From: Sporopachydermia quercuum
Lineage: Eukaryota
DNA: 64,000 nt
Direction of reading: 5' to 3'
Assembly (NCBI GenBank): GCA_001599295.1
Contig: BCGN01000001.1
Location: 1,116,001 to 1,180,000 of the forward strand
Shown: piece after piece, positions 6,801-33,120 of the stretch
Position numbering within the stretch: the stretch's first letter is position 1
Layout of the letters: each line of letters opens with the position of its first letter
The notes under the pieces: generated by a model
What the model was told of the DNA's origin: nothing
What the model saw: the letters and a program-made list of their open reading frames with translations, nothing else
Database searches by the model: none
Program-made: the position numbers and the translations under genes

Positions 6801-7400
6801 CATTCTTCTAATTCAGCATGGCAACAATTCAACTGAACAATACATTGTATTGTCTTTTGAGCTACGCTTCGTTTGATAAGTAAGGATATTAGAAAAAGAA
6901 TCAATTCCTTATCCTTTTTTTCTTTTTGGAATATTTTCTTCTCTCTTACTACAATCAATTTATTATTCTCTCTGATACTGTACCTTCCAACTTCAATGTT
7001 GATCGTTTTGCTCCTGATCAATAATACCTCATTGACCTATCAAAGTTTAATACATAAGTTCGTGTTTCAATAAATAATTGAGGTACTATAAATTAGAGTT
7101 CTTGATCAACATTTTTTTTCCGTTTTAGTTTAAATACTTGGAGAAATGGAAAAGTAGTTGAGTATAGTTTTTACTTGAAAGGTGAGAGATACAATTCTTC
7201 CATTATGACTAATCCGATGAACAAAAACAGCAGTTTTACTGACTACAAGCGTAACAAATACTATTGTTACATGTGAAGCTCTGANCAAAGTGATGGAGCT
7301 TACTCGATGAATAATTGTTGTATACTTCTTGCGCATCTTCTCTCCTCATTACTATGCATAGTTGCTGTATGTTGGGAGGTCTGTGCATGATTATGCATGA

Positions 7401-7443
7401 GGCCAACTGAGGCCCAACTGAGGCCCAACTGAGGCCCAACTGA
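7401..7443. repeat. Tandem minisatellite (GGCCCAACTGA) x4
   Basis: One 10-bp variant GGCCAACTGA followed by three exact 11-bp copies, with no spacers. Confidence 0.95.
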
Positions 7444-9560: not shown

Positions 9561-9699
9561 CTCTGCCTGTGTCGCCAACCTATGCTATTGTATTTGGTTC
9601 TGCTTTCTGTTAAAGTGCTAACTGTATCAATATTTTCCAACAAACGTCTTTCTAAATTCAACTTCACAATCAAATATAGATTACCAAATACGTATATAA

Positions 9700-10650
9700 A
9701 TATATAGTGCAAACAATAATTCATTCAGACTAGAAATTCATGAGAACAGAACACACAATGTAATAATTATAAAAAAGATTAAACAGTAAAAGGTATGAAA
9801 AACCTTAAAGTTACTGTGTAATCAACCTTATTACTATGGTCTGTTAAACCAGTTAAAAACTAAANGGCTCNATCAGAGCAGATACGATTTGCTTTGATAT
9901 GGAGCTAAGCTTTGAAAAGAATTAAACTAGAATCATTTACGAACATTCTGCATATTGGACATACACGAATCATTGAAGCTAAGTTTTATAGAAACTTCGT
10001 TGGGTCNTGATAGTGTTAAATTCATNTATATAGTAGTACAGGAAGGAAACCTTATTGAAAAACTTGTTAACATATGATAGATAGAACTCGTGGAAAAAAA
10101 ATTCGGTGAATTATTGTAGTCTACAGAAACAGTATACATAGTAAATTTGTATCAATAAAATTTGATATTCGTTAAGTCAGCTGCTCTAGTAATTGCACAG
10201 ATTCCAAANCCATGAAACAATGAAATGGAAGATTGAATAATTGATCACTCCTTAGCTGAAGGGAGGAGAGCAGAGAGAGATAAGGATCAAAAGATCCTAT
10301 CTCCATTGAGACAGAAAGTGACAATAAGTGTTATCAAAACATGTCAAATCGATAATGAACCATAATTTGATGAAGGTGTTGTTATCCTATTAGAGTGTGA
10401 GCCATTTCGATGCTCACTTAGTCTGGAATAAGGATAGTGGGCAATGATAAACCAGGAGTGGAGTAAACCAGGTAAGAATCCCAAAAGGCACAATGCAATA
10501 TTGATTAAAGCTGGAGATTGATTGAAAAGTTAGTTGACGGAACGAAAATATAGCTTCAAATATTAATGTTAACACTTACAATCAGCTGAGAAAACACCCC
10601 TTTTGATGAAAACGGGAATAGGTGGGATAAAGANCGCCACAACCACTAGT
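9700..10650 (+). ncRNA. Candidate large structured ncRNA (block A)
   Basis: 13-bp helix 9713-9725/10105-10117. Compound hairpins 9760-9834, 9866-9906, 10277-10303 and 10377-10443 (UUCG loop at 10406-10409). Long-range pairing 10325-10333/10570-10578. GAAA-capped G.U-rich stem near 10516-10535. No ORF. Confidence 0.5.
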
Positions 10651-12920
10651 AACCAATCTTGACTATGCATCTTCACAATTGTTATATATGGATTACTTTG
10701 TATCAACTAATTATCTACTAATAAATCTTTGAATTCACTTTTCTTGCTAATATCTTCTAATTTGCCTTAATTGCAAGAACAAAACAAATACTATATATGT
10801 GTGGAAAAGATACTGTTTCTAGGAAGAACATAGACTAGGAGAATGTGAAAGTCTTCGTTTTTATAGACTAGCCAGCTTTTTTTGTATTTATAATGGGGAA
10901 GCCGCAGGTCATTGATGATGTCATACTATTAGTTGTACAATAGAAGGAGACTTCATGTTAGGGTATTTCAAAACGGGTTTCCGATATTCGGACATCGGAA
11001 TAGATGTGGGCTACCATGCTCAGCTTACATAAATAACAGAAGGAGATAGCCGAATTGACGATGAAAGTATTTCAAGATGTAGAAGAATTTGTCGAGAATG
11101 ATTTGCACAGCGTTTTCATACATGTAAAAGATGCGAATCAAACAATGAGATTGAAGAAGAATGAAGTAATGAATAATAGCATGTCTCTTCAGAATTAATG
11201 TACAACTTTTTACAATAGTAACATGTAGCTAGCAATTTGTCGGACAAGGTTCCTACAGCATTCATATCGGAAGTGGACGAAGTTTTTAGATCTCTCATAC
11301 TCTGATTTAGTATGTATTTGAATATTGAATACTATGCATCCAAGTTGTCATAAATAGATAGATTATTGTAGTGTAGCCACCGACAACCTAGCCCACCAAA
11401 GAAACCAATGATTAAAATTTCACCTGAACTGTAATTACTTATTACCCGAGTTTTCTCTAATTGCTCAATCACGAGACGTTGAAATGCAGTGACATGATGA
11501 CTTGAAACGAATATCTCGTTTATCCTGATATGATATTTTANCTTGTATCATATCCACTGAATAAAACGTCTTGAAATTCTTCTTATCTTTCAACGAATAT
11601 TCATACTTATTCCCTTTCTTTATCTTTTGTCAATTGTTCTTTTTGATTGATAAGAGAATCTTTACCATTAAGTACACAGTTTCCTGCAAGAGCTATATAG
11701 ATCATATGTACAAAACAAACTTTAACCGTTTCTTCCACATTCAGCCTTTTGACTTCCTAAATGTATATTTATCTTCTTTTCTATGTTTTAATTTAATCAA
11801 TTTCCATAAACGAAGATAAAAGGATCCTTTGGTTGGTCAGTTGCTGCACCATAGTTTTAACGATACGATTGTGAGGATGAGGGAGGAACAAAAGAAGAAA
11901 AAAATTAAGANTGCCGAAAGAAATATACTAAAATTTNTTTATTATGAGACATAGCAACACAGGGGTCACATTTGATAGGGCATATATGAAGTTAGCTGAT
12001 GAAATGTGCAAGTCACTTTAAGAAAAGTGGAAATAAGTTGTCTTTCGTATTAATGTTGTTAGATAGGAAGCTGCAAGACACATGAGACGAGACGGACAAG
12101 GTCAATGATTTTCTTTACTGAAGAAACAAGGTCTGTGAGTGTGAACAACCAAATTTTTATGTATTAACCTATTGAGTCATCGATTTTCATTATCTCCCTA
12201 ATGTCACCTAATTGATGTTTTGCAAAATTGGTCTAGATTTTCATTCCTACGGCAGCTGACTATATGGCAACTCCACAAATCAACAAAAAAGCAAAAAAGC
12301 TTAGGAGTTGAGTATAATGAACATTTGATTCATTTGAATATTTTATTTTATANTTTCGCTATGTTCTATTCGTTTTTATTCTTTCTTCTAATACTTGGCT
12401 CCTACTCTTTGCTACTTTACTTTCTTTGCCTTTATCACTTTCCCAACGATAAGTAGATTTTGGTTGCTTACTGATTATATAGAGTAATTTGACTTCCCAA
12501 GTGGTATATTCTAATTATCCATTGTGTTTCTACCAAATTAGGATATGGCTGCTATTATCTTAGAATGCCGTTCCGTACATAATCATTATACTCTACCTCG
12601 AACTACTAGAAACGCAACTCTCTACACACTAAAAAGGATTATTGGCGTCCATATCGCAATTTATTGTAAAGTATTGCAAAAATTATCAGATTGTGTATTC
12701 CNTCTTGTACCATATAAAAGGACCTAAATCCTCAACGTCGATTTTTTTGTTCCTGAATGTTTTTTCCTTTTTAATTGTGAAATACGGAGGTTATACTACT
12801 ATAGAGTTATACCAACTTTCGCTTTAAAGAACAATTAGTTTCATAAAAGAATCAATTGCTTTCGCTCGCTTTCAGAAGACTAATCAACAACGTCTAACAC
12901 AAATCAAACAAATACTCAAA

Positions 12921-13181
12921 ATGGAATTCAAGAAGACTTTAATCTCCACTGCTGCCTTAGTCGCTGCCGTTGCCGCTGCTAACAACACCACCAACAGGTA
13001 TGTAAAACAATTTCAACAATGAAGATTCTGTTCCAAAGGGGAGACATGAGGGGCAAACTAAATACTTATTACTAACATTCATTATAGCACTGTTATTCCT
13101 TCCAATGAAGGTACTGTTGCTGGTATCTCTGCTGCTCTTTTAGGTGCTGCTGTCGCTGGTGTTGTTGCCTTATTATATTAG
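12921..13181 (+). CDS. 56-aa secreted/GPI-type microprotein, DDR2/HOR7-like; exons 12921-12997 and 13088-13181
   Basis: Intron GTATGT (12998)...TACTAAC...TAG (13087). Spliced product MEFKKTLISTAALVAAVAAANNTTNSTVIPSNEGTVAGISAALLGAAVAGVVALLY has a signal peptide, N-glycosylation sequons and a hydrophobic tail. Strong codon bias. Confidence 0.88.
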
Positions 13182-15206: not shown

Positions 15207-18200
15207 ATGGAGCATACAACAGTGAAGATTCAAAATCTTTCTAAAGCTTGGGAGAACAAACCCAACAAGTACCACAGATCCAAAGCACAAGGAAGTATTA
15301 AATTAGTTGCTGATGTCTTGGAATTGATAGTGAAATCCAAGTTCAACTTCGCTGCGATACAAGAGCTTGACAGCTCAAAGTACTTTGAGAATCTCTTATG
15401 GCCCATTCTTGATTCAAACTCACCGGAGACAGTATCAACATCAATCGTAGTTTTCCTTCTTTTTAAACATTCACAAGGAATCGACACATTTGAGTTTTTG
15501 AGCAAAANCGAGAAATTGAGTATTCTGGTTCAACAAGTACTGGAGTTAGGCTTGTCAGAATCTAATTATAAAGGATTGATGATTAGCTTCCTTACTCTGT
15601 TATTTGAACACAGTGATTTACCAACTATCAGAAAAGAATGTGCTCCATTGATTTCAGCGCTAATATGGGAAAATCTTTCAAGCCCTACTCTACGAAATGA
15701 TTTATTAATCAATAATGGGCTAAAAGGCTTGTATGATAGACATAAAGCAAAAGCTGACAGTCTCAAGGAAGAAGAAGCGCAGAAACTGAAACTGAGGAAA
15801 TCATGGATATATTTAATAACAGTTCAAACTATTGAGAAGCTTGCTACCAGAAAACTTAACTCAACGGATGAGTCTACCATTGAGAGATTGTTGGAACTTT
15901 TCATAACACTTCTATCAAGACTACCGACCCGACGATTTGTAAATTCACTGCTTAAAGATTTGAACTTGTTAGCACTATTATACCATTATTGGCAGAAACA
16001 GGGAGTATTGTTAGAACTTATAAGAACACTAGATCACTATATTAATTTCAATGTTGACGACTTCACAGGAGAGTCTCTTAATGACACTGAAGTTAGAGAG
16101 AGATATATTAGTTTCGTTACATCCGTCCAACGACTGGCATTCACAAACTATCCAGACTCCTTGAAACTGTTTTCAGTAGGAACAGTTAACTCTCTGAGCA
16201 AGAAAACAGAATTTTTGGAGTATTTCTCAGACCTTTCAGACCCGGAATTCTTTTTTTTCTGTCAGTCAATGAGCATACGCACAGAGTATCCTCTAAGTAA
16301 ATTTAATGTAACAAGAGCAATACTCATTGATTGCTTGTTTGACAAATTAAGGGAACGACAAACGATTAGCAGGCTGTTTAAATCTATTGATAGCTTTCCA
16401 ACGGAATCCACACTATTTGATTATAATANTACGACAATTGCGGGAGATACAGCTAATGGCAAAGACAACAACGATGACTCTAATTTATTCACTAAGCTTG
16501 TTGTTCCCAATCGACATATTATTCCGCTTCCAAAATTATCATCCCAGTATCTAAGTGTGACCGATTTTGCCCTGAGAGCTTTCCAATTACAACGATTAGA
16601 AGAATATTATCAAATTCAATCTAATATAGAAAATGTCTATAAACGAATGAAGCCTCAGAGAAAAGCAGAAACTTCAAATGAGAGTAACTCGTTACTATCA
16701 TCAGTAAAANTTTCCGGTTTCACTAAAATGGCTTTGCCTTTACAGCAAGAGATTGGAATTCTTAATGTAGGTAGAAAAAATATTGGTGAGACGATTCCTT
16801 CTTTTGTTGAAGCTGAAGTGGTAGTTAGTTATCATAATGTTCCAGAAAACGTTCGTAACGAATGGGACTCATTAAGAGACGGAGAAGTAGTATTTCTATT
16901 AGGACTAGATGAACCAAATCTTTTAAGTAAAGATGCATGGGAAAGAAATGGTATAGTTATGTTGTTNTCTGCTCAAGTAATGGAAATTCAAGATGATCAC
17001 GGTACAAAAATTGACCCTAAGCAATTAGCAGAACCCACTAGCATCAATGATGATAAATCAACGAAGGAGAAAAAATATTGGGGAAAGAAGAGACGGTTTA
17101 AATTGAACTTAGATGCTAAACATTTTCAAAATGTGTCAAGGGATGAGATAACTGGAAATCTGAATGTTTTAATGAGAAGAAATCAAAGAGAAAATAATTT
17201 CAAAGCTGTTCTAGATAACGCAAAGGAATTACTATCACTGAATATTGTTTTACCCCAATGGCTTCATGATGTATTTTTAGGATTCGGTAAACCTGGTGTT
17301 TATCACGGTACAACAAGTGAATCAAATAACTCGAATGTATTCTGTGTGAATGACTGTATTAATGATATAACACAGATTGAAGATGCTTACTCCACCTGCT
17401 CAGTTGAAGTGCTAAGTGAAGGTGATGACAATACTAAAGAGTACGTTGTTAAGAAACAGAAGACAAAGAATGGAAGTAGTAGTAAGAAAAGTTACTTCTC
17501 TAAGGACACAGAGAAAGCACTGATTGATCTTTCTGCATATCATGAGGATAAACATATAACGGTAACTATTGAAAAGAAACCATTCAAAGTTTCAAAAGAT
17601 GACTTTAAGAAAGAAGGGAAATTCCAGACTTTGTGTTTAACGCCTAAGCAGTTGAGAAGTGTTTTAAGTGGCTCATATATTGGTTTAACTGTTATAATTG
17701 GACCTCCAGGTACTGGTAAAACTGATGTGGCATGTAACATTGTTAATAATATTTACCAGAATTTCCCTCAAGAGCGAACTTTGATTATTACTCATAGCAA
17801 CCATGCATTAAATCATATTTTCAGCAAAATCAGTCAGTTTGACATAGCAGAAACACATATTTTACGTTTAGGTCATGGTGAAGAGTCATTGGGCGGATTT
17901 ATTAGTAAAGGAAGCAATTTTGATGGTAGTANTAATGCAAATTCATTTAATAGAAATGGTAGAGTTGAATCATTGAAACAACAGGCAGAGGGCCTTTTAG
18001 TTCAGGTNAACCAATTAGCAGAAAGCCTTGATTTTATAGGCGAGCATGGTTCTTCTTGTGAAGCTGCATTACAATTCTACAATTCTGCTGTACTTCCTTT
18101 GATTAATCGATTTAGAGAAGCTATTGAAAATAGCTGCAATAACAAGGGTGATGATACTAAGAATAACAAAGACTCAACATCTGCTGAACCATCTCCGGAA

Positions 18201-19559
18201 ACAATCGAGTTCCCTTTCAAGAAGTTTTACGTACAACTGGGAAAAAATATTTCAATGTTTGAAGATGAGAAATTATTTGCTATTGACAAAGAAAGAGCTA
18301 TTGGATACATTGTGTATATCGAAGAACTGTTCTGCAAGATTAGAGATTATCGTCCATTTGAAGTTATTTATAGCAATAAAGAAAAAGAAAACTATTTCTT
18401 GAAAAAGAGAGCGAAAATCGTTGCCATGACTGCTTCTTATGCCGCCATTAATAGAAAGCAGCTTATAAAAACAGGATTCAACTATGATAATGTGATCATA
18501 GAAGAAGCAGCTCAACTTACGGAGTTAGAAACACTTTTTCCTCTGTGCTTACAACAAACAGATGGTGTTTCAAATAAAAGTATTAAGCGATTAGTTCTGG
18601 TTGGTGACCATCAACAATTGGCACCAATTGTCAAATATGAGCCCCTGAAAGTATTTTCAAGATTAGATACAAGCTTATTCCAAAGATTAGCTACCTCAAG
18701 TTTCGTTCAAGCACACAAGCTTAATAGCCAAGGGAGATGTAGACCTGAGTTATGCCATTTATTCAGCCATATGTATAAAGATGGTGAGAATGAACTACAG
18801 ACATTGCAATATATTCTAGATGATCCAGCTATTCAGAAAGCCAATCCAGGATTCTTTTATGAACAGCAGTTCATTCAGGTTGATGATTTCAATGGTAAAG
18901 GTGAAATCGAGCCTTCTCCTCATATCTTTCAGAATATTGGCGAAGCAGAGTTTGCAGTTGCTTTATATTCATATATGAGATTGATTGGATACCCCAGTGA
19001 AAAAATAGCTATACTGACGATGTATGCTGGACAAAAGTTCTTGATTGAAGAGATTCTAGGTAATAGATGTGGTAAGAAAGGTCAAGGATATAACCCTAAT
19101 AAAGAAAGAGGAATCAAATTCAAATTTGGATGGCCTGAAGTAAGCACTGTGGATAATTACCAAGGACAAGAGAATGACTTTGTTATTCTATCAATGGTAC
19201 GTACTAAGAGATTAGGATATATAAGAGATATCAGAAGATTGACAGTTGCTTTATCAAGAGCACGATTAGGATTTTATACTTTGGGACAAGAGAAGATCCT
19301 AAGGAGCGATGAAGAATTCAGTAATGAATATGTTGAAGCGATTGAAAGGTTATTGAAGAATGGTAGCGAGAATAATCATAGACTGAAGTTAGTAGGTGGT
19401 GAACTGTATGGTAAATGTGGAAGAAAAGCTGGTAAGAAAGGCCATAAGGAGTTAAGGGAGAATCAAATTTTTGAAATGCAAGGTTTGAAACATTTGTCAC
19501 AGTATGTTTATGAAATGACTAAGACAAGAATAGAGAGAGATCGTTCTGATATTGAATGA
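15207..19559 (+). CDS. CWF11: Aquarius/IBP160/Cwf11 spliceosomal SF1 RNA helicase
   Basis: First ATG at 15207, about 1450 aa. N-terminal YFENLLWP and LPTRRFVN, RRNQRENNFKAVL, Walker A GPPGTGKTD, THSNHALN, Aquarius-type IIEEAAQ, VGDHQQLAP, TVDNYQGQENDFVILSMVRT. Confidence 0.93.
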   Translation: MEHTTVKIQNLSKAWENKPNKYHRSKAQGSIKLVADVLELIVKSKFNFAAIQELDSSKYFENLLWPILDSNSPETVSTSIVVFLLFKHSQGIDTFEFLSKXEKLSILVQQVLELGLSESNYKGLMISFLTLLFEHSDLPTIRKECAPLISALIWENLSSPTLRNDLLINNGLKGLYDRHKAKADSLKEEEAQKLKLRKSWIYLITVQTIEKLATRKLNSTDESTIERLLELFITLLSRLPTRRFVNSLLKDLNLLALLYHYWQKQGVLLELIRTLDHYINFNVDDFTGESLNDTEVRERYISFVTSVQRLAFTNYPDSLKLFSVGTVNSLSKKTEFLEYFSDLSDPEFFFFCQSMSIRTEYPLSKFNVTRAILIDCLFDKLRERQTISRLFKSIDSFPTESTLFDYNXTTIAGDTANGKDNNDDSNLFTKLVVPNRHIIPLPKLSSQYLSVTDFALRAFQLQRLEEYYQIQSNIENVYKRMKPQRKAETSNESNSLLSSVKXSGFTKMALPLQQEIGILNVGRKNIGETIPSFVEAEVVVSYHNVPENVRNEWDSLRDGEVVFLLGLDEPNLLSKDAWERNGIVMLXSAQVMEIQDDHGTKIDPKQLAEPTSINDDKSTKEKKYWGKKRRFKLNLDAKHFQNVSRDEITGNLNVLMRRNQRENNFKAVLDNAKELLSLNIVLPQWLHDVFLGFGKPGVYHGTTSESNNSNVFCVNDCINDITQIEDAYSTCSVEVLSEGDDNTKEYVVKKQKTKNGSSSKKSYFSKDTEKALIDLSAYHEDKHITVTIEKKPFKVSKDDFKKEGKFQTLCLTPKQLRSVLSGSYIGLTVIIGPPGTGKTDVACNIVNNIYQNFPQERTLIITHSNHALNHIFSKISQFDIAETHILRLGHGEESLGGFISKGSNFDGSXNANSFNRNGRVESLKQQAEGLLVQXNQLAESLDFIGEHGSSCEAALQFYNSAVLPLINRFREAIENSCNNKGDDTKNNKDSTSAEPSPETIEFPFKKFYVQLGKNISMFEDEKLFAIDKERAIGYIVYIEELFCKIRDYRPFEVIYSNKEKENYFLKKRAKIVAMTASYAAINRKQLIKTGFNYDNVIIEEAAQLTELETLFPLCLQQTDGVSNKSIKRLVLVGDHQQLAPIVKYEPLKVFSRLDTSLFQRLATSSFVQAHKLNSQGRCRPELCHLFSHMYKDGENELQTLQYILDDPAIQKANPGFFYEQQFIQVDDFNGKGEIEPSPHIFQNIGEAEFAVALYSYMRLIGYPSEKIAILTMYAGQKFLIEEILGNRCGKKGQGYNPNKERGIKFKFGWPEVSTVDNYQGQENDFVILSMVRTKRLGYIRDIRRLTVALSRARLGFYTLGQEKILRSDEEFSNEYVEAIERLLKNGSENNHRLKLVGGELYGKCGRKAGKKGHKELRENQIFEMQGLKHLSQYVYEMTKTRIERDRSDIE

Positions 19560-19775: not shown

Positions 19776-19847
19776 TCCGAAATAGTGTAATGGTTAGCAC
19801 GGTCCGCTCTCACCGGGCAAATCGGGGTTCAATTCCCCGTTTCGGAG
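19776..19847 (+). tRNA. tRNA-Glu (anticodon CTC)
   Basis: Acceptor TCCGAAA/TTTCGGA, D arm GTGT/GCAC, anticodon arm GTCCG-CTCTCAC-CGGGC, T arm CGGGG-TTCAATT-CCCCG. T-run terminator at about 19855; no intron. Confidence 0.97.
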
Positions 19848-20972: not shown

Positions 20973-21484
20973 AAATTCATAAATGTGTACTTGCTGGATC
21001 TGATCAAGTATTAGATATGAAACACGGTTATCGGTAGCCTTTTATTGTTGAATTGACAAATTATATATCAAAGGCTATGTGTAGTCTGACAGCCTGCTAA
21101 TGCAGTTGGTGTCTGANAGCTTTCTTCTTGGACTTTTTTGATAGACGAAACAATCTTTTAATCGGTGAACAAAAGTTAGCTTTCACGTCAAGAGCGAAAA
21201 GATTAACTCTTACTCTTTATGAGATGAGCCGGTTGCAATATATATGATATAAAGTGAAGTGGTTTGACTGTTTGATGGTTGAAATAAAACAATAAAAATA
21301 ACTCAAACTTATTCATGAATATGTNGATATAAAACAATAGAGTCAAAAACTTTGTTTCAATCGGCAAAGAGAAGAGTAAATGATAATGGTAGTGAGAATA
21401 TCTCAAATGACAGTCATATACATAGGAGAGTGCTATATTCTCTGTTGTCCTTATTTGTCTTTATAGGCCGTATATTAATTAATA

Positions 21485-22580
21485 TTTAGTACGTTGCTTT
21501 CAACGTGTGAAAAATCAGTTGTAATAAAGTTAGTAAACCTCGCTTGAATAATCAGATGAGACGATTTAAAAGAAAGAAAGTTTAGTCTTACGATTTAGTT
21601 AGTTAGTTCGTGCGTAAAGTTTAAATAGTTCAATTTTTAATGCGGTTGTTATTTTAAAGGAATACCTGATCATGAGGTTATTCATAGAACTGGAAAAGGG
21701 CATTTGAATTTTATGAAGAAAAAAAAATTAAAAAGCAAGAAAAAGAACACTACTATAACAATTTTGTTTTGCAAGGCTAACAGAAATTGCTAGTAGTGCT
21801 TTTCTCTGGTGATCATATCAATCAATGGCGTAACATTAACATTGATTTACAAACTTTAGGTTCAAATGGTCAATATTAAGTTGAACGTTTTCAATTTAAA
21901 GTGTGCTTTTGTATGTAAATGATTAAGTTAATGGGAATGTCAACTGACAATCTGATAAACTAAGTTAGAAAGCCATGAAATCAACAGATTAGCCCATCGT
22001 AGCTGATCGATATTAAAATCACATCGCAATGAATAAAGCCTTAAATTTTTTCTGTTAAACCTCATTAAAAAGAGGTTGCGGTTGTGTTTCTTCTTTTATG
22101 TTGATGTCTCTTCTGATCAATTGTATTAATCCCGTATGGTGTTAATGCATAAAAGAATCGTTTGCCACAACAACAATATTGAATAATAGTCTTAGCTCAC
22201 TGGTAGTAGTCCATTATTTGGTGGAGTTAGTAAAGTAGCCAAATTGATTATCATATCATTCAATTTATTGTATCAGTTATAATGATGTTTCAATTAAATA
22301 TGAGAGTAAACATCTAGCTGACTAACCTATTCAAGCGAGTGGACCTGAAATCAACAGTTTGATTTGTGTAACTCCTTACATTACAATAGGTGAACTGTGT
22401 TAAGCTGCATGCAAAGCTGCTTTTCTCATAAAAAGGGCAGCATAAATTAGATAAAAGTCGATACAAGCAATACAGCGAAGCTAGTTACATGAACAAGTAG
22501 TTGAGGAGTTTCGACAACACGATGTCGATCAAAGAGTTTGTTTTGCTAATCAGACTTTAGTTNNATTCACAACCTAAACT
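21485..22580 (+). ncRNA. Candidate about 1.1-kb structured ncRNA (block C)
   Basis: Nested long-range helices 21519-21525/22380-22386, 21539-21550/22328-22339 (12 bp perfect) and 21595-21606/22314-22325 (12 bp). Inner helices 21701-21708/21861-21868, 21748-21755/21791-21798 and 22091-22100/22148-22157. No ORF. Confidence 0.55.
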
Positions 22581-23215
22581 AATAATTTTCTGTTTACTAA
22601 GTGCTTAATTAAATGAAAATTTAGTAGTTAGGAAGAAATATAAATCCTCTTTTCGTACTTCCCCTATTCATCTTTGTTCCTTTTGTTATTTCCTCGTAAC
22701 TGTAAGGATCAGGCCTACCATCTCAATGAAAAATAGAGTTCAAATACTATAAATAAAATTTAGCTAGTCAAAATGTCAAGTAAGGTTTATACTATTAATC
22801 CTTATCCCAATCAGGAAATAAAAAAGAATCGTCCGATTTTCAGTTTCATTAATACCAAACGTTACTCTAAGACATTTCTCTTCCATCACCAATTTAATGT
22901 TCATCTGACACATGAACATTGTCGATGGATCGAGTAAAATAAGTAAAAGAATGCAAGAAGTTGAAAATGAAAGAAAAATTTCATGATCAGTCAACGCTAT
23001 TTAAATTAACAAAGTATTAAGAGATTCTATTCTGTGTTTTAGTATTTTCATTTTTCAGTGTAATAATGGGTACGGTTTACTATAACGTACTGCATGTAGA
23101 CTTATCTTAGCATGGTTGATGATTCAACGTNATAGATACTAAATTCAAATGAGTATAATATATTATTATGCATACTTAACAACCGCTCTCCATTTCTCTC
23201 CCATAATAATCATTT

Positions 23216-26200
23216 CTATAAGAATGCCATCCAACCTATAAATCCATTGTTAGAAATAATCAATTCAAACCAATATCAGCCAGAGNCCCGCTATCTTATC
23301 ACATTCTAAATATTTCTCATTAATATCGTCAGCGACACATACCAGCATATAATAAAGCAAGCCGACTAGAATCAGTGGCTTCTTGTATAAGCATATTTAC
23401 TATACTCTCAACAGATAAACCTTCAGGATTCAGTTTTTTCTTAACCGATCGAATAGCCAAATCTGCCTCTAAACCTTCGTCTGCCGTCATCTTCGTTAAC
23501 CCATCGAATTCCTCATTGCTATTGATATTCTGAAGCCGATTCAGTCTCAATGGTGATAAGCTCCAAACATATAATGGATCATATCGCAAAACATCTAATA
23601 TACTAAGAATTGAATCAGTTTCATTCTGTAGCACTTGAAATACAATTTCACTACATCTTCTGAAAGTACCTTCAATTCCTGTGACTCCAAACCCGTCAAT
23701 AATATCACGAGTTAACCTGAATGGTACAGTCTCAGGTATTGGTAACATTTTTCCCTATGAGTCATCAGTTCACTGTTAGTCTCAATTATATAATTTCAGT
23801 TGAAACGCTTTTCTTATCATCATCACAATCCCTTTTACTTACCTGATCAAACGCTACACCTAAGTCAATATGAACAGGCTCGCCAGTATCTTGATCCAAT
23901 AATATATTATTGCAATGACGATCACCAAGTCCTAGTATATATCCAATAATCGATATANCAGCAGTACCTTTAACATAACGAGCTCTACTGTTATACCAAT
24001 CATCAGGAATTAAAAACCTTTCAAAGAAAAAGAACCTGAAAACTGGCTCAAGCTTCTCGGAAACTTGCTGATATGCTTTTATCCTTATTGCATTCTTCTT
24101 AGTAGCAGCAGCATTGACTATTTTCGCCCTAGCTTCCTTGATTGACATATCATCAGGAGAATAATCATTATGAGCTTTGCTCAGATATTCCATTAAAGGT
24201 ATTGAATTGTTAACAAATTGTAAAATCCCACCTTGAGGTTGTAGAGGGATTACTTTATACGTTCTAACTGACAAGTTTCTCTCTCTTGTTTCAAGGTTGT
24301 GAAGGAAAAACTGATTCACCAATTGGAAAACTTGTTCCATGATTGCATCTTGTCTTAAATCATCAGAACCACCTTTAAGCACCATTTTATACATTTCACC
24401 GTCATTGCTTCTAACTATAACAATTTTTGGCCTACTGATGCCTGACGCTGCCATTTCAATCTTATTGTCAATACTAACCATTCTTGGAACATTTCTATAT
24501 TTACCCTCCAAATCTATTGCAATATCACAAGTTGGTGATGGTAATCTAAGTTCTTTCAATCCTTTATCCCACCATCTTTTATCTTTTAAATCTGATGTTG
24601 AGATAATCTTCNACCTTTTATCAATTTTCTCGTTGGCTAATCTTCCTGCATATTCACAGAATTCTAACACATCATCAAGAGTGTCATAATTGTTTTTCAG
24701 TATACCAGCAATTTCTTTAGCTGATTTGACTCTGTTGATAGTAACATGATCATCGTTTGTTGGAATAGGATGGAATATTAAGTACACTAAATGATATAAT
24801 GTATGATAAGGGTGTTTAGCAAATACCTTCAACAACAATGATTTCAATACTGATTGAAATAGTTTATCATTATTATTATTACCATTTTTGTTTGCACTAT
24901 CGGTAGTGGCATTGCTGCTATTATTACTATCTCCAAGTCTTGCAGTTAATTGAGGAACCCATGGAATTAGCTTATAAAAAGGGAACTGTTGCAGAAATGA
25001 TAATAGACTCTCATTTATCCTCTCAACTTGATTATTCTCAAACCAAAGGCTTAAAAATTTTAAAANCGAATCATCGAATTTATCGCCATCGATTATTAAA
25101 CATTTAATATAATTATGGCAGGCAATCGTAATCAATTCCAATCTTGAATTCCTTAACATTTCCAGCTCTTCTTCATCATCTTTCAACATTGTTTTAAAAT
25201 AATTGATACTACTCATAATTCTTCTTAATTCAGTTGATCCTGTTTTATATTTCTTGCCTTCAACAAGCAATTCATTAATTTCTCTCTGTTTCTTCTTTTG
25301 AAGATCTCCATATCTTTCTAGTTCTTCATCTATTTTCCCTTTTAATTGATAGTAACAAAATGTAGCAAAATCATAGTAAATCTTACTGGAAATCTCATTG
25401 TCAACTGTTATTTCTTCAAATAGTTTCACAGCTTTATTGAAGTATTTCTCAATTATAATTCCTGGTGATTCTTGTCTTGCTTGGAATGACCAATTGCCAA
25501 TAGTTGAATAAACTAGAGGGATGATTTGTATTAGAAATATTCCTAGTGGTTCATTCTTGCAATCATCAATCAATTTTTCATTCTTGATGACATCTCTAAG
25601 AATTGCTTGAGGCAACTTTCTATCATTTTGACCCCAAAGAGTTATTGCAGTATTATAATTAGAAAGAANATTAACTGTTGTGTTGATGATGTTGTTTTGT
25701 TGCAAATTCGATAATGCGACCGTTGAATTAAAAGATTTCTGAGTTTCTTTACTTTCACAGGCTATTTGATTATACTGGTTCAAGTTGAATGCTTGGAGAT
25801 CAATCAATAATTTAGGATTAGAATAAGGAACAGAATTGGGGTTATTATTATTCGAAGAAGAAGCACTAATATTCTTTCTAAGTAAATCAATTGATAACGA
25901 TCTTGCAGTAAGCAATGTATCGACCTTTTTGAATGGTTTCTTCGAAATCCATTGGTTTCTTTCTTTATAACAATTGACCAACATGATTAATTCTTCCTCA
26001 TTTTTNTCCGTTGTGCTTTTTCTCCAATTCCTAAAAACAGAAAATAAATCTTTACTTTCCACTATAATTGCAATTGTCTGGAACCAATTCTCGATCTCCT
26101 TAAAATCGTTATTCAAATTTGGGAATTTGAATGACAATTGGTTTATAAAATCAATGAAAAACCCCTCGTCAACATTCGATTTATCATTCAAATCAGAGAA

Positions 26201-26319
26201 GAATTTGTATAAAACAGAATTTTGGTTGAACGATGATAATTCATTTATTTCAGTCGGTAGAATATCCCATTGTTGAAGTTTCCACATGATTTCGAATTGA
26301 TTCGATAGCGACTTATTAA

Positions 26320-26355
<36 letters not shown>

Positions 26356-29300
26356 CATAAACAGTCTTTGCTAAACCATTCATTCCTTTATTCAACATAT
26401 TAGAAATAAGATTTTCATTAAACGCTTCATCATTTTCTCCATCAAATCGGTTATCGATTATTTTACCATCTAATCTTGACGAATTATACGCAAATTTGGA
26501 CCATGAGCTCAAACCATCATTCATATTATCAATATTCTTCATTATCAAATCTAACGATGATTTTAGTGGTAATCCTGTTAATAAATCTTTATTATTCAGT
26601 TTTTCATAATTGATCTGTAAGTCATTTCTTATTTGATGATTTCCATGAACTAGATCATTATTGATGTATGAATTGAGTGACATCTTCTCTTCTAGTAACA
26701 ATAACGCAGTTTTCGGTTTATTCAATTCAATTGCTATTTTATGAAGTAAATCTTTACTAATTAGAAATTCTGTTGCTGCCTGTGTTGATGTTTTTGCTGA
26801 CGTAAAGTACTTTTTATAATTTTTTATGATAAGAACTTTTCTAACATAAAGATAAGTGTCTAAGAGTAATTCCTTATATTTGAAACAATCTTGTAATGAG
26901 AGTATTGATGATAATACATTGTTGTAAATAAAGATGAATTGTTCTATATCTTTATGATTTGATAGAATAAAAGACAAAGATACCTGCCTGAAAATTGATC
27001 GAGCAAATTGATGGTTTAAATGAAGCAGATTGAAGAAATGGTTGAATAACCTAATGTTGCATCTTTCAATGAGCCATTTGATTAATTGTAGAAGCCAGTG
27101 GTTAAAGTTTTGATTCGTCAATGATTTGATAGATATGAAATAGTTTATACTATCTTCCTCGTTTTCTTCTTCCTCTTCTTGATGATTAATTTTATGAAGA
27201 AAAACATTCTGATGAGGAATGATTAAATCAAAAATCCAGTTTTCGTTAATAGTTTGGAGACAATGATGTAGTAAAGAATCATTTTCATTGGTTATCAGAT
27301 ATAAAGAAACACCAAGGATTCTTTCCGCTTCAATTGAGTAAATCATATTATGATCATTTGACAGTTTTATCAACCTTTGAAGTATTGGAATGACACATTT
27401 AGCAGATAGAATAGTATTCGCCGTACTGGTAGAATTTGTGCTATTATTATGATCGTTAATACTGTTGTTCCTTGTTTTGCTAATTGTTTTATTATTATTA
27501 GTAGTAGTAGTAGTACTATTGGTGAACGTACTATTATTTGTCATATCGTCATCTTTCCATTCATCCATTGTAAGCCTTTTGCAAGTTGATAATCCGTTGG
27601 ATAAATATATGTTTGCTAATAAAGAAGATTTCCAATAAGCAATTGGTGACTCAACAATAAATATATCAACAGAATCAGTAGTGAAATTATTAGCAGTACT
27701 AGNAATAGTATTCCCCTCGATCCCATTTCTTCCAATGATCGGAAGATCAACAGACAATAACACACTGACAATTAAGTCATTGTTATTATATTTTGGTTCT
27801 GCTAGTTTGACCAAAAGATTTTCATTGTTTTTGAATATTTGCGATAAAATTATCATNGTCATTTTCTGTAATTGATGATCATTTCTGATTATGCAAAACA
27901 ATTCTTCAACATCACTATGACCAATATCCGCAGTATCAACGGCATTAACACTGCTTGCAGAATTAGGATTAACAGTACCTTCAATATGAAAATAGCTTTT
28001 AAGGAAACATCTGATCAACATTAAGCATATGTTTATACTATTTGAATTACTATGAAGAGTATGCTGATTTAGAAGATTATTCTCNTTATTACTAACGAAA
28101 AACAGCCATTTGATTAATAAATCATTCTTGTTCACTTCATAGCAATTGGTAGTATTTATTCCTTTATCATCCACATTATTGTCATTTCCAGTAGTTTCAA
28201 TATTTCCCCTTTTATTCCCCTTCGAGATATTGAATAGAATAGTGAAGTAAACAGTTATGAATAATTGACCATTATTAGTTATAATCCTATGATTTCTCTT
28301 GATGAAAAATAATAAAATTGTTTCTATCTCTTTATATAGCCTGTAGGAGTTCATTATTTCATTGCCAATTATACTTAGGACCTTCCGAATCGAATGAGAA
28401 TTGAAGAAATTACCACTATTAATTATCACAGCTAGTTTTACTCTTCTAAGAGCCATCAGCCTTTTTTCTTCATTTGAATTGTACTGGAAATCGCTTAATA
28501 AGCCAGTAAAACAGTAATTCATAGTTTTGGCATTAAACATTTCATGGGGAGATGATATGTTAAGAAATCGTTGTAACCAGTTCATCGATTTGATGAGTAC
28601 TTGAATAGAAATTCTGGGATCGAAATTTGGATTAATTAAAGNTAGTTGATTTGATAATCCGATCGATTTTAACTCTTCTGATGATATGCTTATATTGCTG
28701 GTACTATTGTTATCATCTCGTGATAAATAGTCATAATTCGCACTCGACAAATCTGTCATGTGAAACAAATTGAGTATGCAATCATCATAACAATCTCCAA
28801 TTAAATGCTCCCAATTCGAATGGCCAATNACAGACCCTAGTAACTCGATCAAATCATTAAGCTCTCCACCAGTTTTAAAAGAGTAATAGGCAAATATTGT
28901 CGATATATTACTACTAACTAATTCAATCAATGATGTATTGTCGAAATATGACTTTATCTCGGTCAATTCGTTTATAACATCTTTCTTATTCCTTGATTGA
29001 GTGAAAGAAATAGCAATTATAATCCCTAGAATTATATCTTGATTCAATGTGAGAAATTGCTTATATGAAGCATAGTCAAGTATCTCATAAGGGAAACAAG
29101 ATAAAGGTTGATCAATTAACCAAAAGGATAGAATTTGATGTCTCAAATTATGAAAATATTGATGGATTGATGTATAATTCAAACTATTTGATAGTTTCAA
29201 TAAACATTGCTTGACATATGGTTTGATGTAATTGAATTTAGAATGTTCAAATAAATTCATACCAACAGCATCAGAGATTGATGAGTTATTATAGATTGAT

Positions 29301-32300
29301 TGGTTAGTCAAAACTTCAAGACGGATTATTCTTGACTCTAATCTGGTATCCTTTTCATCAAATGGTAGAGAATTGTATAATAAAGAATAGCAACTCATTG
29401 TATTTTCAATTGATCTATTGTAGATGAAAAATGATTGAAGGTGTTTAGTTAGCTGTAATTTAAGATAGCAATCTGACACTGTGATTATATTGAAAAAAGT
29501 GTTGATTACAGTTCTGATATTAATGTCAGCATTGATTGTTTGATTAGTAGTACTATTATTATAATTATTGGTGTTAATGATTTCTAACACAAGCTCCCCA
29601 AATGCTTCTAAAGATGCTGTCGTTGTCAATTGATTATCATTATTCATTTTAACTAACCATTCATATATATCTAAACAATCTTTCTGGAGATCATTTGATT
29701 GACTCAGCCAATGAGGAATGAATTGTTTCAAAAGAAACGAAAATGTGATATTTGTCCATAATGTTCTCTCGCATTGGAATTCTGTTAATAGTCGTTCTGC
29801 TAACGTTCTAATCAATTCTTCAATCAAGGACACTTCTAGCTTATCGATTCTAAATGTTTGGTTTAAATGAAAGAAATCTAAGATAAGATAAGGAAGAGAA
29901 TTTAATGATGCCGTAGAAAACAATGTAACAAAAAAACTGATTATGCTGTTGCTACTGTTATTGTTGTTGACGCTGCTGCTGGTGTTGTTTGATTTTATTA
30001 TATAGTAATTCTTCTGAAGAGACAGAAGTTTCTGTTCAAAGCAACAATTCAGTGGCTTCATAGAATGAAATCTAAGAACCAAGTCATCGTCTTCATATAA
30101 GGAAACATCTTGGAACGTATCTTTGCCCCTGATGACACCAAACTCGTCCAATGAGCTTCCTGAGGTTGAATCTTGCGAGAATCCCGCATTTAAAGCTAAT
30201 GACATACTATTAGCATTGTTATTGTTATTGCTATAGCTATTTTGCTGTGACGTTTGATATGAGGATTCTGCTAGTTGGAATACGAGTTCGGATAGTTGCA
30301 ACGACAGTTGTAATACCTGTTCACGTAGTTGTAGCTGTGGTAGAACGTGCAAAGGAGAATTTGCAGTTAATAATTTGGATATATTGATTGAATCCTCTTC
30401 CAGTGATTTGTAGAATGATTGGTAAAAATTGGAAGTGAACTGCTGTAATGAGGATAAAGAAGACTCGATAGAGGAGTGGTTCATATGTAGATGAAGACGC
30501 AGTTGAGCTATTTGGTTATCAAAACACAGCGAGAATATTAGCCATTGGAGAAGTTGATGATCTGGTTTGATAGGTAAGTTAGGCGAATTAGATCTGCTAG
30601 TATTACCAATAGGAGTACCATTGGTAGAATTCCCGTCATTGCTTGAAATGTCCCAAGAAATATTCTTTTGAATTGATGCAATAGCAGTGGATATAATTTT
30701 ATTGAATGTTTCACCATAATCAATTGTTGAATTATGTAGAACTTGTAGTTTCGATTTGATTCTACCTATCGACTTACTACTGCTATTGTTATCATTATTA
30801 TCACTATTTCTTAACTGTATGAAACTTATAACAGTGCCCCTATCTCTAACAAACAAATCAACAAGTTCCAGTTCCGAATCATAACTTGGTTTTACCTGCC
30901 ATTGTTTCAAATTAATATCATTCATACCGAACACCCAACTAAGGAAGACAACCATGCCTAGAATCCCACAGTCATTGAACCCACTATTATCAATACGAGC
31001 CAAAGAAGTTGTGTACCAATGAATCAAAGACTTCCTTCTATCTATTGACTGTCCGTTAAATACTGAGATGCTGTTGCTGAAAACTACTTGCCAGAAAAGA
31101 ATAGACTCAGAGCAAATGATTATAGGGCCAGCAATTAAAGGATCGTTGATGACTCTTCTTAGTTCTTTCACTGATTGTTCATTCAGGGGGCATTTCATTG
31201 CAAGAATGATGGATAGGAGCATACAAGCAGGCTTGAATGATATTTCATTTGATAGATGCTGGAGTGATAGTTTAAGATAATTACTATTCATTGTTACAGT
31301 AGTAGCAGTTCTAGTTCTAGGAGTATCGATTGCTTGATAGAAACTGAATACAGCTGACAACAACCATCCAGAGTTCAATTGAGCTTGACTTTGACTGAGT
31401 AAAGTGTCGAAAACGCTGCTGAACCATTGAAAATTTGTCTGCTTGATACTTGCGCTTGTTTGTAAGTAAAATGTTGATAATTGAAGCCCAGTTTTTCTCA
31501 TTTCTGTTGATGCGTTCAGTACATTTGATAGAAAAGTGATTAAGCAGTCAGATTGGAGTATTAAATCTTCAATTGATATTTGGGGTTGGCCTGGAGTATG
31601 TAGATGTGTCTGGGGATATGAATAAGGATATAAATTGGTAAAGGCGCAAGGATACGATTGACCTTGAGGCGTTCCTTCTCTTCTTCTCCTTTTTAAAGAA
31701 CGTTCTTCTGTTAATGAAGTATTTGCAAAGGATCTCTTTGGTGTAGTAAATCCAATAATCCTTGTAGTGTCATTGGTGATAGGGTCAGTTGCATTGTTGC
31801 TACTACTAAAACTACTCATCTCAGTAGCCTCACTAATATGGAAATAAATATCACATAGTTTTGATAATAAATAAATAGTCAACCATTCAACTTGTTTCCT
31901 CGGATCCTTTAAAAATATTCCTCTCAAAGAAAAGGCAGTATTGGGACGTCTGGACTTATTATTATCGTCACAGTGGAAACCAATGTCAGTTAGCAATGGT
32001 AAATTGTGACCTCTGGTTTCTAATGTTTCCTCTAGAATAGCAACCAACAACATTTGGATAGCCATTCGAGCATTTCTATGCAATTTCAATTTACCTGCTG
32101 CTTGTCCTTGTATCAATTGATCACCAGTATCACGTTCTTGAAACAATGGAGCATTAGGAATATAGTAGAAGTCAATACCTATCAATAGAATCTTCAGTGA
32201 TACATGTTTCAAACTATCATTTCTTCTTGTCCAGTATTTCGCAATCAATCCTGATACGCCAATAATTATATCTTGAGAAATCCATATTCTATCACATATC

Positions 32301-33120
32301 AAATGTATTATTAGATTTGAGACAGCTGACAACAATCCATGGATTATAAACCCAGTGGTCGAATAGCATATGATGTATTTATTCAATACAGACCAAATGT
32401 CCCAAGCGTGATTTCTAGCTTCAAATTCACTGTGACGTAAGACATTGCTTAAGCAATAGAGTAACTCCACATTTATTTGCGATAGTCTTTCATTCTGTAA
32501 AGCACTTAAGTCGTCACCAGGCGAATAATCGAAATCCAATGATTGAAGACAGAATTTGATTATTAGTAGTCGTTCACGAGTGTCTAAATGGTCAAGAAAA
32601 CATGTTCTCTCAATAATTGATGATAATAGTTTGATCCAGCAAACTCCTAATGGTTGTAGAATACGAAAAGGATCTATAGAGCATTTGATGTTGGTTAGAA
32701 TGCCCTCGGTGACTGTCAAAACTGATTTAGTTTCAAATCTGTTGAAATGAATGGAAGTTTCTACCAGTTGTTTCAAACTGGCACCAGCTTTTGTTAGTCG
32801 ATCAATTGTGGATGCATTTTGGTTTTTATAGTAAAGATATTTTTCGGTTTTGACGAGTTGGAAAATTGCTTTAAATAATGATAAGTATGTTTTCTCTTTC
32901 CATCGTTTAACTTTCTTTCTATCACAACATATTGATTCAAGATCTTCTAGGGCTTCTTGACGATCTCTTAACTTCTGGGACGTAAGTTTATCTTTAAAAT
33001 ATCAGTTTCGTTAGCTAGTAATACTTTAAAAAGTGGGTGATGGTTCTATTATAATAATGAAATCAAGTTAAGATACTTACTACATATGATGTTGGTATCA
33101 GGTACTAATGGATAGGACAT
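23216..33120 (-). CDS. TEL1: ATM/Tel1 PIKK kinase; exons 33120-33081, 32991-23843, 23754-23343 and 23235-23216 (3206 aa)
   Basis: TAN motif [13 protein letters not shown] restored by intron 1. Kinase motifs [22 protein letters not shown] and [31 protein letters not shown] end LYAG|WMAFL restored by intron 3. Exon lengths sum to 9621 nt, in frame. Confidence 0.95.
26322..26354. repeat. (TTG)11 microsatellite encoding poly-Asn in Tel1
   Basis: Directly visible trinucleotide run. Confidence 0.95.

Follow-up and report, generated by a model that had tools for sequence, protein, structure and literature searches.

In this study, the stretch that most likely runs from 21146 to 22600 (the 5' end lying alternatively at 21465) is tentatively explained as a stand-alone, plus-strand gene for a multi-armed scaffold RNA of about 1.1 to 1.45 kb, which would be made by RNA polymerase II and would belong to a family outside those tested. 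Although this is the best of the explanations considered, it is held with reserve, and both ends are predicted ones. The region folds more stably than expected, favors the plus strand, is single-copy, matches no RNA family and contains no template for the telomere repeat. In the proposed mechanism, transcription would start in an AT-rich TATA region that would also serve a small divergent ORF, and it would end before a pyrimidine-rich terminator. The transcript would fold around a central junction with three arms, namely a 5' hairpin domain, an 800-nt domain and a 3' arm. Like the long arms of yeast telomerase RNA, it might serve as a flexible scaffold for a putative protein partner in a ribonucleoprotein, acting neither as a template nor as an rRNA guide.

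To our knowledge, only a handful of kilobase-sized structured RNAs are known in yeasts (telomerase RNA, expanded U1 and U2, snR30, snR86 and expanded RNase P and MRP). If real, a folded RNA of 1.4 kb would be an addition to this short list, because the known RNAs that were searched for map to other loci and telomerase RNA is excluded by the template test; if no transcript exists, the region is an ordinary spacer. The literature on yeast TER, snR86, P3-like sites, structured introns and novel yeast RNAs yielded no published description of the locus, and supplements could list such RNAs. According to the accessible part of its report, a conserved-structure screen covered five model fungi, and the present lineage lies outside them (PMC8216456).

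Genomic setting and predicted architecture

The window, meaning the whole 64-kb stretch that was analyzed, corresponds to G000:C1:1116001-1180000 of a 16.4-Mb genome in 15 contigs, and all simple positions refer to it. To the left of the folded region lie an Aquarius helicase gene (15207-19559, plus strand), a tRNA-Glu gene at 19776 and a 95-codon ORF (20972-20685, minus strand). To the right lies the end of a TEL1/ATM-like gene on the minus strand, with its stop read by eye near 23216. The stretch carries no plus-strand ORF of at least 60 codons and no ORF assignable to a known family. Since the 64-kb window has many gaps of 3-4 kb, the gene-free space is no argument for an RNA gene. The earlier note held that no protein gene lies downstream on this strand; none is recognizable there, but a 54-codon ATG frame (22773-22937, plus strand) is present, with a good start context and a TATA-like site upstream at 22639, and a search for its homologues found none.

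The neighborhood offered several further observations. The product of the 95-codon ORF begins like a signal peptide, is amphipathic in the middle and ends in a hydrophobic stretch, and a TATA lies 95 nt upstream; no Pfam family, homologue or clear Atlas match was found for it, and its sequence would possibly fit a lineage-specific secreted or membrane peptide. The TEL1-like gene (23216-33100, minus strand) was read by eye as having at least three introns, with the branch points GACTAAC, AGCTAAC and TTCTAAC and one apparent AAG acceptor. A small two-exon gene at 12921-13180 (plus strand) shows a signal-peptide-like start, a hydrophobic tail and a clean GTATGT-TACTAAC-TAG intron. A peptidase encoded in the window shares 57-60% identity alike with Lipomyces, Pichiales and Cyberlindnera proteins, which puts the organism among the budding yeasts, with no close annotated relative; its lineage is taken to be an early-branching one.

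The folded stretch has one match in the genome. A mobile or repeated element was rejected on this single match, the lack of an ORF remnant and chance-level phage matches. Exact-word scans returned three metagenome matches and one prokaryote match (a bacterial contig, unaligned); when aligned, the three metagenome matches shared only an 18-mer with the stretch. The same type of scan of viral contigs gave no match, and phage blastn gave chance matches only. The sequencing runs listed for the stretch were five DNA runs and no RNA run, which is no evidence either way. One sequencing run of another organism covered only 22687-22937, at low depth and with no differing letter, and therefore gave no comparison.

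The predicted parts are collected in the table. A TATA followed by a pyrimidine run is also found upstream of this genome's U1, U2 and U3 genes, and the TATA, pyrimidine run and T-rich tail of the region are arranged as at the snRNA genes of this genome. The Sm-like site is interrupted, unlike the uninterrupted U-tract sites of the organism's own U1 and U2. In the pyrimidine-rich run beyond it, the TCTT and GTAA motifs are those associated with Nrd1/Nab3. For the possible helix closing the whole fold, alternative closures were 6.7 kcal/mol worse, and the 5'-3' closure varied with the stretch that was folded.

Predicted features of the region (positions in the window; splice-like and box-like motifs included)
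Feature	Position	Strand	Basis or remark
TATATA, candidate shared promoter for the plus-strand RNA and the minus-strand small ORF	21062..21067	both	motif scan; putative role
Pyrimidine-rich run	about 21120-21140		downstream of TATATA 21062; motif scan
5' arm of possible closing helix of the whole fold	21146..21159, pairs with 22532-22545	+	probability 0.97 and 0.88 in the 21140-22640 fold
Long 5' hairpin	21206..21378	+	local z -5.0, 6th of 268; shuffle z -3.7 (+), -2.2 (-)
Alternative TATA, TATAAAA	21328..21334	+	together with the pyrimidine run at 21436-21462, would start a shorter RNA near 21465; motif scan
H-box-like AAATGA, then weaker hairpin	21378; 21386-21471	+	two-hairpin fold
Central multibranch domain, 801 nt	21539..22339	+	closed by perfect 12-bp helix, CTCGCTTGAATA at 21539-21550 with its exact complement at 22328-22339
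Stacked helix of central domain	21551-21579/22087-22117	+	predicted fold
First five hairpins of central domain	21613-21715, 21748-21798, 21820-21847, 21853-21902, 21920-21967	+	
Last four hairpins of central domain	21987-22008, 22122-22149, 22173-22271, 22273-22321	+	
3' arm: 9-bp base helix, internal loop, small-junction cap	22370..22510	+	z -4.2 (+), -0.4 (-), with bounds drawn from the plus-strand fold, which bears on its plus-only folding; helices 0.95-1.0
TACAATAGG, 5' strand of the 3' arm internal loop	22382..22390	+	P3-loop-like; contains ACAATA
Hairpins 22511-22528 and 22533-22558 and weak closing stem of 3' domain	22511..22580	+	
AATTTTCTG, non-consensus Sm-like site near likely 3' end	22584..22592	+	occurs twice in the window
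Run of pyrimidine-rich sequence with the motifs TCTT and GTAA	22647..22704	+	possible terminator of ncRNA type, or promoter region for the small frame downstream
Splice-like signals	GTACGT 21489, GTATGT 21911, GACTAAC 22320, AAG 22335 or CAG 22358	+	frequent by chance

Folding compared with chance

The region had been picked out in the earlier note because three stacked long-range helices seemed to close an 800-nt multibranch domain. The perfect 12-bp helix was recovered with a pair probability of 0.98-0.99 in every fold; alone, it is unremarkable, because a perfect inverted repeat of at least 12 bp occurred in 129 of 1000 dinucleotide shuffles of the region and in 10 of 111 same-size real windows elsewhere in the 64 kb. 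The inner 12-bp helix can be drawn (21595-21606/22314-22325, with two G-U pairs), but its probability was 0.0015 and forcing it cost 5.4 kcal/mol; in the favored fold, the stacked helix of the table sits on the 12-bp helix instead, and 22308-22321 forms part of a local hairpin. The outer 7-bp helix, AAATCAG/TTGATTT, formed in a fold cut at 22480 but was displaced once the 3' domain was included, and five different outer helices of 7-8 bp are possible. Thus, the proposed stack comes down to one solid helix and two alternatives. The many inner stems were likewise counted (22 perfect stems of at least 8 bp), but at the chance level (expected 20.4 +/- 4.8).

A separate 3' domain does exist, but 22356-22580 bounds it better (z -3.8 on the plus strand and -0.1 on the minus strand) than the original 22387-22576, for which z was -1.6 and 10 of 100 shuffles were as good. 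Taken whole (22356-22581), this domain ranked 32nd among the 268 non-redundant local structures of the window with z of -2.5 or below, a list in which the tRNA ranked 30th. The structure also extends 5' beyond the region first drawn, taking in the long 5' hairpin and, possibly, the closing helix.

The z-score folding that had been suggested as a check came out in favor of structure, since both the 801-nt domain and the region fold better than shuffles. The domain gave z of -4.9 on the plus strand and -4.4 on the minus strand, with none of 20 shuffles as good on either, values to be set against boundary-matched controls because its ends were chosen. Seven other helix-closed domains, the most stable in the window, served for this comparison: six gave z of -1.4 to -3.1, and the seventh (685-1299), the only one to beat the 801-nt domain, gave -5.2 and holds a (TA)n hairpin. 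Among unselected 800-nt tiles, the overlapping tile ranked only 3rd and 7th of 158. Among 92 unselected 1200-nt non-coding folds in the window, however, the plus strand of tile 21360-22559 ranked first, at -3.0 sd for its composition, versus -1.4 on the minus strand. For the round-number 1.5-kb window 21100-22600, z was -5.0 on the plus strand and -1.6 on the minus strand (20 shuffles). The comparison set of four 1.5-kb non-coding windows, which included the three most stable rival tiles, gave -0.6 to -1.7 (nine shuffles each).

The genome-wide controls comprised 116 folds, namely both strands of 58 half-overlapping, mostly non-coding tiles from 24 other loci. Against these, four placements of the region ranked 1st, 2nd, 2nd and 3rd on the plus strand (-2.6 to -3.3 sd) and 3rd to 13th on the minus strand. 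The region therefore stands in the top 1-3% of this genome's non-coding DNA, which is unusual and not unique. Two of the 116 control folds, at -3.1 and -2.8 sd, were equally stable, and neither is a known RNA gene (the second was only read). The first, L148:240-1500 on the minus strand (G000:C1:900240-901500), looks by eye like a long, A-rich and structured leader ahead of a Gln-rich ORF and had no Rfam match; the second, L068:5200-6700 on the minus strand (G000:C9:937291-938791), lies near a contig end. Within the window, strong local folds also occur in the 9600-12900 gap, at 11426-11683 and 9717-9925 (both plus strand) and at 10183-10460, none with an Rfam match at the gathering score.

Pairs with a probability of at least 0.8 numbered 331 on the plus strand versus 174 on the minus strand in the 21140-22640 fold. 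The strand difference of the 1.5-kb window was only 1.9 sd beyond shuffles, and the central domain folds nearly as well on the minus strand.

These data bear directly on the reading in which there is no functional RNA at all. The region would then be an AT-rich spacer, holding the TEL1 terminator and the small-ORF promoter, whose folding energy falls in the upper tail and which was picked for looking structured. This is fairly unlikely but deserves real weight: the 12-bp repeat is frequent in shuffles, the inner stems are at the chance level, local structures abound in the window, two control folds are as stable, no RNA family matches, and the region was chosen by the earlier note for its structure. 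On the other side, z stays near -5 at each of three scales, one of them a window whose ends do not coincide with helix ends; the plus-strand bias rests on G-U pairs, which DNA-level inverted repeats do not need; and the sole better boundary-matched control, one in seven, contains the (TA)n hairpin. The claim of a large structured plus-strand RNA is supported by the folding statistics, but the giant H/ACA identity attached to it is not.

Guide RNAs, introns and known families

The scan of the window with Rfam left the region without a match at the gathering score, and up to an E value of 10 only chance-level matches appeared. U1, U2, U3, RNase P, RNase MRP, SRP and snR30 had no match here, and each was found at another locus; U4, U5 and U6 snRNA gave no covariance-model match in the region. 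Group I and group II intron and U4-like readings were dropped after inspection by eye for their motifs. As for C/D guides, the longest antisense rRNA matches were 10 nt with no D box behind them, and the Rfam C/D matches fell far below the cut-off. At 21363, 10 nt are complementary to the 5' end of U2, which is within chance. Beside these searches, snR66 was seen directly behind the RNase MRP gene (L061:1204-1300, minus strand), and the U3 gene (L144:1400-1520, plus strand) is interrupted after nucleotide 14 by an intron (GTAAGT, TACTAAC, CAG), as the U3 gene of baker's yeast is.

A giant H/ACA RNA resembling snR86 had been suggested from an ACAATA box before the 3' domain and an ACA at its end. 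The ACAATA is present at 22383, but it lies inside the 3' domain rather than before it, and its first two bases are paired in a helix that has a probability of 0.98. The final ACA, at 22569, is likewise present but falls in a stem strand with a probability of 0.2-0.6. In the favored fold, the H box is thus outside any single-stranded hinge, and the ACA is probably outside a single-stranded tail. A covariance scan gave no Rfam H/ACA match in the window, either at the gathering score or at E values up to 10. The guide search was made against the rRNA of other fungi (loci L084, L089, L120 and L137), because the organism's own rDNA is absent from the assembly, and against its own U1 and U2, leaving out U4, U5 and U6; a few undetermined bases hide one last pocket from it. 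The only LSU rRNA-like pieces in the assembly, L075/L076 (G000:C2:51633-51952), are probably an inserted fragment. When ten well-supported helices were taken as pocket tops, none had both a box 14-16 nt away and a credible target, and no two-sided guide pairing to the LSU site modified by snR86 was found in the region. All 33 guide matches of at least 10 bp fell on stems outside the favored fold.

Orphan H/ACA RNAs exist, and two alternative drawings place box-like motifs at hinge-like positions. The first takes the 3' arm as the 3' hairpin, with an H-like AAATCA at 22348 and an ACA at 22514; the second takes a separate 270-nt two-hairpin RNA at 21206-21477 (plus strand), with an H-like AAATGA at 21378 and an AUA tail. 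A size argument can be added, since snR86, which guides LSU position 2314, is described in the available parts of two reports as about 1 kb long with only its 3' hairpin conserved (PMC2551606, PMC5824354). According to the sections consulted, it has been reported from Saccharomycetes alone, with no copy found in CTG-clade yeasts (PMC5824354, PMC5033589). Nevertheless, the ANANNA pattern occurs 108 times in 21000-23000, AAATCA and AAATGA fit only the alternative drawings, no credible target was found for the 5' unit, whose best match is in a variable LSU region of another fungus, and snR30 is located elsewhere. An orphan or giant H/ACA RNA, whether as originally drawn or in either alternative, is quite improbable.

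The structure might instead belong to a different transcript. It could be a long intron that pairs with itself inside a non-coding host, or it could form a very long, structured leader preceding the 54-codon frame at 22773. This too is unlikely, though less so than an H/ACA RNA. In the intron version, either donor of the table would be joined through GACTAAC to the AG at 22335 or 22358, and the 12-bp helix would act as a zipper beside the branch point. The 800-nt domain does have splice-like signals on both sides, and TEL1 introns here use GACTAAC and AAG. However, the window contains many such signals, and GTACGT itself is tied up in a hairpin with a probability of 0.96. An arm of the helix separates the branch point from the acceptor, neither of the two spliced products would gain an open reading frame, and no Rfam snoRNA lies inside. 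The leader version gains from the equally stable control L148, which by eye resembles a long leader before an ORF, but the 54-codon frame lacks a homologue and has its own TATA-like site. On the minus strand, two perfect TACTAAC motifs lie inside the element, at 21529-21535 and 22226-22232, the first 56 nt after a GTAAGA and with no nearby YAG.

Telomere template, P3-like loop and known systems

The telomere repeat, read from contig ends (for example, L003:1-95 and L019:1406-1500), is the 11-mer GGGAGGTAGTT, for which no yeast record stood among the literature matches listed. The candidate contains no template for this unit, the best plus-strand match to any permutation being 8 of 11 and lying outside the folded region; telomerase RNA was therefore rejected. 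Exact template-like sites of 14-16 nt are present elsewhere in the genome. Eleven internal exact matches of at least 13 nt to the telomere unit were seen on C1-C7. In a 4-kb gap, at about 7400-7440 and 7371-7380 (minus strand), three to four tandem telomere-like 11-mers (CAGTTGGGCCT) lie beside a 10-nt match to the telomere C-strand.

A telomerase RNA, or a template-less duplicate of it, would explain the size, the long arms around a central junction, the P3-like loop and the Sm-like site near the 3' end, features comparable to those of TLC1 as far as the available text describes it (PMC6049500). Against it stand the missing template, the exact sites elsewhere and the absence of a U-rich H-type pseudoknot on the plus strand in a strict small-pseudoknot scan, uncalibrated on known TERs. 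This reading is scarcely credible, and as an active TER it is nearly excluded.

The internal loop of the 3' arm starts with TACAATAG|G, like the Rfam consensus loop of MRP P3, and it has the same helix-loop-helix context as the organism's own MRP and P RNAs, its open form costing 3.5 kcal/mol. The motif itself occurs 14 times in the window versus 18.5 expected, and one of the 13 other copies has a similar loop context. In the excerpts of two papers, Pop6/Pop7 is described as binding to P3-like loops of RNase P, MRP and the telomerase RNAs of budding and fission yeast (PMC6049500, PMC13303942). Binding of Pop6/Pop7 by the 3' arm loop would be a testable guess from sequence likeness, and it is offered as a post-hoc lead only, after many motifs were tried. 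If such binding occurs, reuse of this module would extend beyond RNase P, MRP and telomerase. The fuller version, a template-less, telomerase-sized, Pol II-made P3-domain ribonucleoprotein that carries Pop6/Pop7 (and possibly Pop1) on its 3' arm, perhaps with an Sm ring, and acts as a scaffold, is very improbable; if true, it would be a fourth kind of P3-domain ribonucleoprotein in yeast.

The scaffold RNA proposed here can be compared with five known systems. Like snR30/U17 (RF01271), it would be an expanded, multi-branched Pol II RNA, but it lacks m1/m2 motifs, and the genome's snR30, at G000:C3:151067, carries what we take to be these motifs. With snR86 (RF01272, the 25S Psi2314 guide) it shares the size class and the combination of a very large 5' region with a compact 3' domain; its favored fold differs in having no single-stranded H hinge or ACA tail and no guide for the Psi2314 context or other credible guide. 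Long structured yeast introns with zipper stems, as partly described in the literature, resemble it in the long-range helix beside the branch-point-like GACTAAC, and it differs from them in lacking a coding host, in the helix arm downstream of the branch point and in structure that runs beyond both candidate splice sites. The P3 domain of RNase MRP and P has a comparable helix-loop-helix with a UACANNNG|G 5' strand, whereas the candidate loop, which measures 11x11 nt in its open form, is partly closed at minimum energy, has a 3' strand unlike the consensus and is not accompanied by catalytic-core motifs, both genes being elsewhere. TLC1 and Yarrowia TER, in the parts of the two reports at hand, share with the predicted RNA a size of about 1-1.5 kb, long helical arms from a central junction, a candidate P3-like loop, a U-rich site near the 3' end and, probably, transcription by Pol II (PMC6049500, PMC6746865). 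The candidate differs from them in that it has no template, no pseudoknot was found in it, its Sm-like site is non-consensus, and its P3-like loop is placed in the 3' arm, whereas theirs is found at the Est1 arm or next to the pseudoknot. By analogy, the scaffold RNA, if real, would work most like the scaffold arms of telomerase RNA.
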